Positions 33,345 to 36,333 of a stretch of DNA of 64,000 bases are shown here, in pieces. The notes below the pieces were generated by a model, which was not told the DNA's origin, did no database searches, and worked only from the letters and a program-made list of their open reading frames with translations. A program made the translations under genes and the position numbers. Numbering within the stretch: position 1 is the first letter of the stretch; every line of letters begins with the position of its first letter. The DNA comes from Candidatus Bathyarchaeota archaeon (GTDB lineage: Archaea; Thermoproteota; Bathyarchaeia; Bathyarchaeales; Bathycorpusculaceae). The stretch lies in assembly GCA_963811105.1 (NCBI GenBank), contig CAWEPZ010000011.1, forward strand, positions 544,001 to 608,000, read 5' to 3'.

Positions 33345-35279
33345 ATGGTAATTGAAAGCATAAATTGGATGGCAGGCGGACCCCAAGGAAGCGGCGTTGA
33401 CACAGCATCCACCATATTTGGCAGAGCTTGCGGTTACGGCGGCCTATGGGTTTTCGGCAGAAGAGAATACCACTCGAACATTAAGACAATGCATAGCTAT
33501 TTCCTTCAGCGGATTTCGAAACAGCCAACCCTAGCCAATATTAGTGATGTGGATTTGCTTGCAGCTTTTGACGCTGAAACCGTTGTAAGGCATGTCAGCG
33601 AAGTCGTGAGTGAGGGCGGCATAATAGTTGATTCACGCGATTTAAGCGTCAATGTCTTAAATGGAATTCCAACATTTTCTGAGGAATATAAAAAACATAT
33701 CCAAGCTTACATGAAAGAAAACAATATTGGCGAAACTATCACTGATTTCCTCAATTACGCTAAAACAAAAAATATTCAGGTATATCCTGTTCCATATATG
33801 GACTTGCTTACGCAAATTGGCAAAGCAGTCAAAATAGAAAAAGTCAGTATGCTCTCAAAAATGCTAAACGTTCTAACAATAGGAATATCATTTGCTCTTC
33901 TAAAATATGACAAAAAACTTGTTGAAGACGCAATCAAAGCTACCTTCCACGAAAAAATCGCCGCCATGAACGTCACAGCAATAGACTACGCTTACGATTA
34001 CGCAGAAAAAAACCTCAACATAAACAGTTTCAAACACAAACTAGAAAAAGTACCCGTTAATGAGCCGCGAATTTTCCTGACAGGAAACCAAGCAGTCGCT
34101 ATGGGCAAAGTTTTAGGCGGCTGCAGAATACAAACATACTATCCAATCACTCCAGCGGCTGATGAAAGCGAATATATAGAAGCGCACGAACTGCTAAAGA
34201 CAAAAAAAGGTCAAGAAGCAATCGTTGTGCTTCAAACGGAAGACGAAATTGCTGCGGTAAATTCGGCTTCAGGCGCATGCTTGACTGGAGCAAGAGCAGC
34301 GACAAGCACGTCAGGACCAGGTTTTTCATTGATGGCTGAGGGCTTAGGATGGGCAGGAAACAACGAAGTACCTTTAGTAATAACATATTATCAGCGAGGT
34401 GGACCTTCAACCGGCCAGCCTACAAGGCACAGTCAACAAGACTTACGATTCGCCATGCATGCAGCTCACGGAGAATTCGCACGAATAATTCTTGCTTCAG
34501 GAGACATTAAGGAATGCTTCTACGACGCAGCTGAAGTGTTCAATTTAGCTGAAAAATATCAGATGCCAGTTATTCATTTACTTGACAAAGGCATGGCTAA
34601 TTGCTCACAAACATACCCAATCTTCGACTACACAAACGTCAAGATCGACCGAGGACAAATTGTCACAGAAAAAGAGTTGGAAGACAAAGAGTACAAGCGC
34701 TTCCGCTTCACTGAAACCGGAGTTTCTCCAAGGGCTTTTTTGGGCACGAAAAACGCAGTACAATGGTGCACCGGCGATGAGCATAATGAGTCGGGTAACA
34801 TAAACGAAGAGCCATTTACCCGCAGGGCGATGATGGAGAAAAGAATGAAAAAGCTGGACTTGGTGGATAAAGAGGTGCCGTTGGAAATGAAGATTAACTT
34901 TTTTGGCGACAAAGACTCAGAAAACATAGTGGTAAGTTGGGGCTCCCCTAAAGGCGCTATTATTGAATCGCTCAACCAGCTTAAAGATGAAGGCTTTAGT
35001 TTATGCTACATTCAAGTGCGAATGATACATCCGCTTCCCTCTGCCTACCTAAAACAACTACTTCAAAACAAAAAACGCATAATTGACATAGAAGACAACA
35101 TCACTGCTCAATTAGGCGGCATAATCACAGAACACACTTCAACCAAACCCAACTATTACATCCTCAAATATACTGGCAGACCAATGATGACAACTGAAGT
35201 TTATCAAGCCATCAAGAATGTCTTAACAGATAAAGCGCCCGAAAGGCAGGTGCTCATGCTCTATAAGATACCATTATGA
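33345..35279 (+). CDS. korA: 2-oxoacid:ferredoxin oxidoreductase alpha(gamma) subunit, C-terminus altered by an insertion
   Basis: GGPQGSGV, YYPITPA, EDEIAA, TSGPGFSLM, QRGGPSTGQPT, GDEH. Confidence 0.93.
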   Translation: MVIESINWMAGGPQGSGVDTASTIFGRACGYGGLWVFGRREYHSNIKTMHSYFLQRISKQPTLANISDVDLLAAFDAETVVRHVSEVVSEGGIIVDSRDLSVNVLNGIPTFSEEYKKHIQAYMKENNIGETITDFLNYAKTKNIQVYPVPYMDLLTQIGKAVKIEKVSMLSKMLNVLTIGISFALLKYDKKLVEDAIKATFHEKIAAMNVTAIDYAYDYAEKNLNINSFKHKLEKVPVNEPRIFLTGNQAVAMGKVLGGCRIQTYYPITPAADESEYIEAHELLKTKKGQEAIVVLQTEDEIAAVNSASGACLTGARAATSTSGPGFSLMAEGLGWAGNNEVPLVITYYQRGGPSTGQPTRHSQQDLRFAMHAAHGEFARIILASGDIKECFYDAAEVFNLAEKYQMPVIHLLDKGMANCSQTYPIFDYTNVKIDRGQIVTEKELEDKEYKRFRFTETGVSPRAFLGTKNAVQWCTGDEHNESGNINEEPFTRRAMMEKRMKKLDLVDKEVPLEMKINFFGDKDSENIVVSWGSPKGAIIESLNQLKDEGFSLCYIQVRMIHPLPSAYLKQLLQNKKRIIDIEDNITAQLGGIITEHTSTKPNYYILKYTGRPMMTTEVYQAIKNVLTDKAPERQVLMLYKIPL

Positions 35280-36316
35280 ACAATAGAAGCATGTGACAAC
35301 TGATATGAAGGCAGTCTTAAAAATAGAAAGTCGCCAGTAGTTTGGTATGTCAAGTACGGCTTTAAGGTTTTGACGGTTAAGTGGGGGAATTCACCCCGGG
35401 GCAAGCCCCGGGGTTCTCTTCTCCCAAACCCAGAAATAGATATACGTTCAGCTTCAACCTTAGCAATATAACCATCAGATTCATACAATTTTCGAGTAAC
35501 ACCCTCAAAACCCGAACACCCTAAACAAGCAGGAGAACCAGTACGATTAAAACTCTTAGAACCATGCCGTTTAAAAATCGGACATTTCCGACAACGAGTA
35601 TAACCGCCCTTGATAAATCCAATTACATGCCAGTGGAAGCTAAAAAACCAGCCTAAAGGATAATTAGCAGTTCCAGAAACCTCAAATTCCTTACGATCAT
35701 GATACCGAAAAGCGTGAGGAATCAAAACACCGCCAATAATCCCGCGAGAATACAAAACCTCAACAGCCTTAGCTCTTAACTGTTTCAAACTTAAACCATA
35801 ATCCCTCGAAGGCACACTTAAAACAATATGTTCAGCTTTACTATCCTCACCCATACCAGCTAAATAAGCAGAACCAGCCTTAATGCGCTGTTCAATCTTG
35901 CCAGCCTCACGATAAGAAGCACCAAATCTATAACACACTGGGCAACGCCAATTAAAACAATGACGATGAACAAGATGAACATAAGCCTCATTAGGATGCT
36001 TTTCACCATCCAACAAAGTACCAGCCCCATGCAATTCAGTTCTTAAACAGGCTTCATAACCAAGCCATGCACCACAATCAACACGAGTTTGCTCACCCTG
36101 ACCAACAAGTTCATGATCACCAAACACACCCCACTGATTAACAGGCTCAGGCTCACCTTGCTTAAAATCATCAAAAGACGATTTATATTCACGAGCTAAA
36201 TTCTCAATCTCACCATCAGTTAGTAAACGCAAAGGATAAACAGTTACAAAATCAGAAGAATGACTGAAATCGGAAATTGAAAGACCATTAACATCACCTT
36301 TTTCAATTGAACGCAA
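35261..36316 (-). CDS. HUH-superfamily rolling-circle replication initiator, probably C-terminally truncated
   Basis: Zn motif [10 protein letters not shown], motif I HIVLSVP, GGVLIPH, HUH FHWHVIG, motif III YQLSH. Confidence 0.8.
35316..35429 (+). mobile_element. 114-bp palindromic mini-insert (IS200/IS605-end or PATE-like), in frame within rep
   Basis: tgggggaa-ttc-accccggggc-aa-gccccggggt-tctc-ttctccca double hairpin; adds 38 codons between ISISG and xxxYQLSH. Confidence 0.65.
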
Positions 36317-36333
36317 AGGATAAGCTGTTATAC

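Follow-up and report, generated by a model that had tools for sequence, protein, structure and literature searches.

Background

Among described archaeal elements, the closest in kind to the locus treated here is NitAQ6f-E2, a thaumarchaeal integrated element which, in the part of its description drawn on here, has both an integrase and a putative initiator of rolling-circle replication (PMC6563490). A further, newly recognised archaeal rolling-circle initiator, Rep-Arvir (PF25227/DUF7845), belongs to integrating viruses and plasmids; the portion of its account used here gives it a TBP-like (Rep_trans) fold and does not cluster it with the HUH Reps (PMC13107129). We report the analysis of a foreign segment that carries part of a replication initiator gene, rep, on its antisense strand and separates korA from korB, the genes for the subunits of a 2-oxoacid:ferredoxin oxidoreductase, in a Candidatus Bathyarchaeota archaeon. 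The window, that is the whole stretch of DNA that was analysed, comprises 64,000 nucleotides (assembly GCA_963811105.1, contig CAWEPZ010000011.1, positions 544,001 to 608,000 of the forward strand), and all positions below refer to it unless a contig is named.

The sphaerolipovirus SNJ1 is said to possess an IS91-like RepA. For the Bathyarchaeia themselves, the passages searched of a virome preprint do not mention rolling-circle replication (PMC10541130), and full-text searches of the literature returned no description of Bathyarchaeia elements with a Rep of the present kind. In the present work, we define the boundaries of the segment, place its rep gene in a family that occurs in integrative elements and show that a related element occupies the same site in another species. 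On this evidence we consider it likely that the segment is the decayed remnant of a small (~3-5 kb) plasmid-like element, delivered by an integrase to a recurrent attachment (att) site.

The foreign segment and its empty site

korA encodes a 644-amino-acid fused gamma/alpha subunit of the oxidoreductase (an open reading frame, ORF, with the Pfam matches POR_N, 1.7e-53, POR, 6.8e-27, and PFOR_II) and korB its beta subunit (TPP_enzyme_C, 1.6e-29, and PFO_beta_C). Between the two lies a foreign segment of 1,074 bp, at 35261..36334, whose strand composition is reversed (GC skew of about -0.3, the flanks being close to 0) and which is single-copy within its own 3.49-Mb genome. Its boundaries follow from comparison with four public sequencing runs, X1, X2, X9 and X12, through their Logan contigs. 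Contigs of X1, X2 and X9, with flanks 97-99% identical to the window, carry the empty joint 35260/36335, at which 1,074 bases are skipped with no positional ambiguity; the empty form is present in X12 too, in a sequence more divergent than that of the other three runs. A kor match was obtained in 21 of the 24 other congeneric genomes compared, and the end of korA and the start of korB are adjacent or overlap by ~13 nt in every listed pair except that of genome G005, to which we return below. A larger draw gave a kor match in 102 of 120 genus genomes, and the genes are adjacent in all of the matches listed, outside which a further 64 rows lie.

A first-pass annotation of the window, made from the sequence alone, had recognised an insertion at the korA/korB overlap, and the empty site whose search it suggested is indeed found, both in close-strain contigs and in congeneric genomes. 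The coordinates that it gave, 35259..36332, are replaced by those above on the strength of the X1, X2 and X9 joints, and its reconstructed empty site, with korA ending VLMHGA and korB starting with ATG, is contradicted by relatives and close strains alike. Four aligned congeneric genomes (the G003 row being left out) read ...ATGCTTGGC...TAA, such that korA ends VLMLGA, followed by a stop codon, and overlaps the TTG start of korB. In the filled site, native korA sequence reaches 35260 and the last six codons and the stop come from the insert: the insert-derived LYKIPL and stop replace the native GA and stop, and the ending VLMLYKIPL that had been reported is confirmed in translation. At the other end the insertion converted the korB start from TTG to ATG (36334..36336), the A of which is the final base of the insert. 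The CATG found on both flanks, earlier offered as a possible 4-bp target duplication, is a coincidence, since the exact joint shows no such duplication; the reported lack of terminal inverted repeats stands, none of the eight inverted pairs found in the insert linking both of its ends.

The 11-nt overlap between korA and korB appears in this way to have been lost, and with the genes now about 1,054 nt apart the coupling that it provided would be gone. On the sense strand a GC hairpin and then a T-rich tract lie between the two genes. The own genome has two further POR_N loci, so that a lower output of the interrupted kor operon may be tolerated, and the present effects of the remnant on its host would be passive. 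An Rfam scan of 34800-36800 returned no match, and a promoter scan with a sigma-70 model, which is unsuited to archaea, gave two sites against 2.0 expected.

A truncated and interrupted rep gene

The antisense ORF of the insert does stop at the korA-side junction, and the zinc-finger, H-x-H and Tyr residues that the first-pass annotation had picked out are invariant across 88 homologs; what requires correction is the state of the gene, which is truncated at its 3' end and interrupted by 113 bp. The frame ends at the junction because about the last 95 residues of Rep are gone: the homologs extend for ~95 amino acids past the window stop and hold there a conserved WFGxCSYRKLK and a CPxC motif. 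Before this point, the window protein leaves its homologs after ...ERISIS, runs through 42 unrelated residues, rejoins them at the region of the invariant Tyr and then stops. Homology of the insert to related elements starts exactly at 36334. To positions 1831-2734 of L004, the locus of an element in genome G047, the insert is 86% identical over 904 nt, and a second block follows (Table 1); to L167, a metagenome contig, the identity is 84% over 415 nt. L004 also contains a repeat, exact over 16 nt and extending to ~30 nt when judged by eye, whose copies lie at 1801 and 1921.

An X1 contig runs beyond 35269 into the remainder of rep and joins 35327 to 35441. As this contig lacks the 113 bp and continues past 35269, it shows that the mini-insert was indeed inserted and that rep in the window has been cut short at 35269. 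The mini-insert consists of 106 bp and a 7-bp target duplication, AAATAGA (35321-35327 and 35434-35440), and bears a perfect GC hairpin at 35393-35414 (ACCCCGGGGC/GCCCCGGGGT). Of the features of a miniature inverted-repeat transposable element (MITE), it shows the 7-bp duplication; clear terminal inverted repeats are not seen in it. The hairpin core has one other copy in the own genome, which is intergenic (G000:C2:417080-417099), and the mini-insert is not multi-copy there; its part 35377-35440 recurs in a different context in run X2. A protein from a 4,366-bp contig, P0001, is 97% identical, starts MTDCITAYPL... and carries the mini-insert, and it extends upstream in the manner of L004. The mini-insert, being shared by a copy that continues upstream, is thus older than the event at kor. 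Selection for an open frame through the mini-insert, which requires an extra base at 35310, was considered and put down to chance, as only 13 codons follow. The window copy is dead, a rep pseudogene fragment unable to replicate or move.

The Rep family

The window ORF has no match in Pfam (E<=1), PHROGs or NCBIfam. Sequence searches retrieved 54 relatives that are close to it in length. They also gave 417 clusters (50% identity), among which 58 fall below 1e-30, and full-length members measure 330-420 amino acids. All 25 reference-genome loci lie in archaeal metagenome-assembled or single-amplified genomes (MAGs or SAGs), 24 of them titled Bathyarchaeota or Bathyarchaeia and one Thermoproteota; no family relative was found in IMG/VR viral contigs, nor by tblastn among the PLSDB plasmids or the INPHARED phages.

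Conservation within the family is concentrated in cysteines and histidines. In the numbering of P0002, the closest full-length homolog (75% identical), the residues invariant in the 88-member alignment are C99, C108, H114, C138, C143, H181, H219, H246-x-H248, C260, C263, C285, Y318, H322 and G339, and the CPxC pair C357/C360 is nearly invariant, in at least 90% of the 88. The motif around H246 and H248 reads SPHFHVLGF in P0002 and FHWHV in the window ORF. Y318 and H322 belong to a motif YQLxHAS, on a helix spanning 312-320 in the model described below, which differs from the usual YxxK and whose catalytic role is putative.

A structural model of P0002 (predicted local-distance difference test score, pLDDT, 84; predicted template-modelling score, pTM, 0.77) was compared with known folds. 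In a wide VIA-align comparison, HUH nucleases fill seven of the top eight rows over model residues ~160-348, with Z of only 3.9-4.8; these rows include Vientovirus Rep, SIRV1 ORF119, RepB of pMV158, MVM NS1, AAV5 Rep and FBNYV M-Rep. Foldseek against the PDB gave no match at E<=0.001, and the two matches of a PDB sequence-profile search (E 0.52 and 1.1) are not meaningful. BFVD returned nine matches at E<=0.001, none of which carries a name; named rows rank lower (E 0.014-0.022) and several of them are microvirus replication initiators. Pfam scans of the 88 members singly, of which the best 25 of 67 matched families were seen and in which no match reaches its curated cut-off, showed weak Rep_1 in 5/88 (best E 0.0029) and weak Zn_Tnp_IS91 in 7/88 (best E 0.022). 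Within that same scope neither the Y2 transposase family PF04986 nor PF25227, whose inclusion in the library is unchecked, matches any of the members, and neither matches the window ORF. In the ESM Atlas, Rep_1 clusters appear at 0.95-0.96, ranked after the family's own clusters. Taken with the conserved residues, the model suggests that the family is probably a divergent, zinc-rich HUH-type replication initiator.

Integrative elements that carry rep

Full-length relatives of rep sit in islands of 3.3-5 kb with sharp edges and a coding strand of 65-75% G+T. A tyrosine recombinase is encoded on the opposite strand, PF00589 exceeding its cut-off in seven of the eight loci tested and reaching 21 bits in the eighth; G003 has one too. 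Direct repeats flank the islands at L015 (23 bp), L020 (21 bp), L026 (18 and 19 bp), G003 (26 bp) and G047 (19 bp), and the element at L024 (1411..6220) lies within a tRNA-Gly gene, whose 5' part furnishes a repeat of 35 bp. To judge by this architecture, the islands are small integrative plasmid-like elements of Bathyarchaeia, and the family is probably their replication initiator. The rep gene of L024 is broken into a pair of ORFs, 3803-4705 and 4690-4941, and this element may also be decaying.

The window insert itself has no integrase gene and only one copy of the att core (35245-35260), with no flanking att repeat; lacking an integrase and a pair of att repeats, it is classed as a remnant and not as an element. 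It does hold two iteron-like repeats, which are listed in Table 1. The iteron core was found only in the subfamily formed by L004, L167 and the window, and in the other loci no shared upstream repeat was seen. Two further candidate patterns were set aside: a 15-mer iteron pattern gave at least 117 single matches in viral contigs and was judged chance, and a repeat TGTRTAASAG occurs five times in L004 against 1.1 expected, but two of the five fall within host sequence, and the single occurrence in L167 does not exceed chance.

The 3' end of korA as an attachment site

The contig L167 runs, in order, through korB (reverse complement), AGCATTAACACCTGCC, TCTGGTCTAAGTAAT..., a 1.5-kb arm and rep, and then ends. 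Its Rep protein is 81% identical over the part present, and rep has the same orientation relative to kor as in the window. The korB DNA of L167 is only 84% identical to that of the window, which makes it another species. A related element is met at the same korA/korB junction outside the window's own species.

The element of G047, ~5.0 kb long, is integrated elsewhere. Its left junction, at the end of another contig, reads ...TTAATG / AGCAATAACACCCTGCC / TCTGGTCTAAGTAATC... and its right junction ...GGGTGTTTTG / AGCAATAACACCCTGCC / CAGTTGAG..., the 19-bp direct repeat lying at a non-kor locus, and the kor site of G047 is itself empty. The core that flanks this element, TGAGCAATAACACCCTGCC, nonetheless agrees with the L167 allele of the korA end (reverse complement) in 15 of 16 positions, the two being separated by one mismatch and a 1-nt indel, and the korA end of G019 has the same allele as L167 over the 14 nt visible. 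In the window, the reverse complement of 35245-35260 is AGCATGAGCACCTGCC, the window allele of a ~17-bp subfamily core, AGCAWTAACACC(C)TGCC. The insert starts exactly at the edge of this core, in the form "element end / AGCA..." that is seen at the right junction of G047. On these alignments the korA/korB overlap is a recurrent att site, the att core of the subfamily mimicking the 3' end of korA.

Searches with the left-terminus pattern gave five matches, three of which (in G009, G019 and G100, with two mismatches each) lie away from kor genes. G076 and G079 were considered as further copies and rejected: arm homologs are present in both, but the termini differ and they are not at kor.

Two further observations concern these sites. 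In G005 an unrelated insertion of 2.8 kb occupies the same korA/korB junction (L171, G005:C1:20500-27500; 2274..5064). It encodes, on the opposite strand, one secreted-looking protein of 889 amino acids with many DxxNGxLKYAxWNG repeats, and it is flanked by a 12-nt repeat, CAGGTGCTTAYG, that overlaps the same att core. In G047, two contigs of the one MAG (L183/L004; the ends of G047:C1 and G047:C8) terminate no more than ~50 nt from the element's left junction, probably because the population is polymorphic at this att site and the assembly broke there.

Origin of the insert

The reading that we regard as likely, a decayed integrated element, may be set out as follows. The integrase would have put the element into the att core of ~17 bp, which shares bases with the final codons of korA, at a time when rep already held its 113-bp MITE-like insertion. 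One deletion would have extended from inside rep to ~8-12 nt before the integrase-side end of the element, possibly via GGTA microhomology, and would have taken with it the remainder of rep together with the integrase and the ORFs downstream. A second, ending shortly upstream of rep, would have removed the korB-side core copy and the arm of 1.5-1.8 kb. The korA-side junction would then be an ordinary att junction. The 8 nt between core and rep are probably the element's own integrase-side terminus beside the core (...GGGTGTTTTG is the corresponding end of the G047 element), or alternatively filler; if they are a terminus, the donor should carry ...TCTTATAG at its integrase side, adjoining the core.

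Several points weigh against this account. The 8 nt may be filler and not a terminus of the element. A second core copy is missing from the korB-side junction, and the implied deletion starts exactly at the core edge; were deletions random within ~1.8 kb, such a coincidence would arise roughly once in 1,000. Nor can any microhomology be seen at that junction. Three events, one integration and two deletions, are needed, though sister strains that are 97-99% identical keep a clean empty site. No integrase or other element DNA was found in the window or elsewhere in the genome, and the one other occupied kor site of the family that was found, that of L167, lacks its far end where the contig stops.

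The same korB-side junction bears on the alternative that survives best, a one-step capture, which we nevertheless hold to be unlikely. Here a break at the edge of the att core, arising for example when an integrase nick became a double-strand break on replication, would have been repaired by non-homologous end joining (NHEJ) with a linear piece of an element, one end of which came from a Rep nick site upstream of rep; in a variant, end joining would have made only the korB-side deletion in an element that was already integrated. The clean character of the insertion, with no duplication, no host bases lost and no korB-side microhomology, is consistent with such a repair, as are the 8 unmatched nt at the korA-side junction and a full NHEJ operon in the own genome, 36 kb away. 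So is the rep-side breakpoint, which is also the end that the second deletion would have: it falls where L004 and L167 regain homology after ~55 unrelated bases, at the end of the ~30-nt repeat of L004. The korA-side junction, however, resembles an ordinary att junction, a conserved upstream nick motif was not found across the family, and integrase cleavage sites usually lie inside the core, not at its edge.

A stricter form of the nick hypothesis, in which both ends of the insert mark cleavage positions and the korB-side join unites an integrase cut at the core edge with the Rep nick site upstream of rep, strikes us as improbable. The Rep-mediated capture put forward in the first-pass annotation survives as a minor possibility, for one junction only. 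If the stricter form were true, the HUH Rep and the tyrosine integrase of a single element would act together on its integrated DNA and, with the help of Ku/LigD end joining by the host, discard the att core and arm; this would be an undescribed route for the decay of integrated rolling-circle elements or for the formation of their mini-derivatives, with both cleavage sites mapped from sequence alone.

We judge it very improbable that the insert is a chimera of assembly, in which a fragment of plasmid or virus reads was joined to the chromosome in error. Neither filled junction was seen in any of the four runs examined; the best of these contains only 26% of the sampled words, so that the absence is not evidence against the insert, and none of the runs is the source sample. 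The junctions are base-exact, without host loss, on a contig of more than 1 Mb, and the point of insertion is the edge of an att core defined independently in L167 and G047, with which an artefact would not coincide. Scarcely credible, lastly, is the minimal rolling-circle IS91-like transposon first proposed for this locus, in which a solitary Rep moves its own gene without target duplication, for although HUH-type motifs, the weak Zn_Tnp_IS91 matches and the joint absence of a target duplication and terminal inverted repeats would suit it, rep is truncated, interrupted and present once in the genome, no other unit with these ends was found in the own genome, in 40 relatives or, among the matches listed, in the 120 genus genomes, and the full-length relatives, which are longer and gave no Y2_Tnp match among the best 25 of 67 families, travel with an integrase and att repeats, an outcome that the first-pass annotation had itself named as telling against its proposal. 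The accompanying proposal that the foreign DNA came from a plasmid- or virus-like replicon has fared well, its homologs lying in integrated elements.

If the insert is the remnant of an integrated element, as we think likely, it is in itself ordinary genome debris. What it points to is a sizeable unannotated family, whose 417 clusters have genome matches that are all archaeal and, but for one in 25, titled as belonging to Bathyarchaeota or Bathyarchaeia, a major group of sediment archaea. The locus also offers a natural uncoupling of the korAB operon, with the change of korB start codon, that could probe the importance of translational coupling for the enzyme.

Features of the locus and its surroundings

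Table 1. Positions, strands and supporting evidence for the features of the korA/korB region of the window.
Feature	Position	Strand	Basis
korA, fused gamma/alpha subunit	33345..35279	+	Pfam, empty-site joint, relatives
Host att core copy	35245..35260		Same block adjoins the L167 element and forms the 19-bp repeat around the G047 element
8 nt, CTATAAGA	35261..35268	-	Without match in rep; homology to L004 and to the X1 copy stops at 35269
Distal rep piece with the invariant Tyr	35269..35327	-	93% identical to L004 2728-2785
MITE-like mini-insertion, 113 bp	35328..35440		Absent from L004 and from an X1 contig
Proximal rep and ~120 bp upstream of the conserved coding region	35441..36334	-	L004 and L167 homology
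Truncated, interrupted pseudo-Rep ORF, 351 codons, TTG start	35261..36316	-	ORF and homolog comparison
Iteron-like repeat copy 1, in the 5' part of rep	36226..36246	-	21-nt direct repeat, 90% identical to 36310-36330
Iteron-like repeat copy 2, degenerate, beside the korB-side junction	36310..36330	-	Alignment with L004 and L167
korB, beta subunit	36334..37299	+	Pfam, empty-site comparison

The NHEJ operon of the genome (G000:C11:506373-509912, L170; ~36 kb upstream of the window) is of bacterial type, with matches to the LigD Prim-Pol domain at 274 bits and to Ku at 139 bits, and its ATP-dependent ligase is fused to a LigD 3'-phosphoesterase domain (LigD_N). Within the window, 38093..40662 holds genes for an NrdR-like regulator (148 amino acids) and then a class III anaerobic ribonucleotide reductase (708 amino acids), both named by eye from their translations.

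Comparison with known systems

The IS91/ISCR transposases are HUH enzymes with a zinc-binding region at the N-terminus, as the family members probably are too, and the insert likewise has no target duplication. The family and its elements differ from them in giving no Y2_Tnp match among the best 25 families, in having only one conserved Tyr, in moving by integrase and att site and not between ori and ter ends, and in not being multi-copy. The invariant H-x-H and downstream Tyr are likenesses to Rep_1 (PF01446, of the pC194/pUB110 type) and to the HUH initiators of microviruses (phiX-type), from which the family is set apart by four extra Cys/His clusters and a single evident conserved Tyr, that of YQLxHAS. 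Rep-Arvir resembles it as an archaeal rolling-circle initiator of integrating replicons; identity with Rep-Arvir is rejected, however, as the fold of that protein is TBP-like in the portion of the account used here, whereas the window protein best matches HUH nucleases (PMC13107129).

The nearest likeness in element architecture is to NitAQ6f-E2, which, so far as the part of its description drawn on here extends, is also a small integrated element with an integrase and a putative rolling-circle initiator (PMC6563490). Against that description, the present Rep belongs to a family that Pfam, NCBIfam and PHROGs leave unannotated and that was encountered in Bathyarchaeia alone; the att repeats and the strong strand bias are features of the Bathyarchaeia elements reported here and are not taken from that source. 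One subfamily of these elements, moreover, would target the 3' end of a protein-coding gene, korA, and not a tRNA gene, and it is to this subfamily that the dead fragment in the window belongs.

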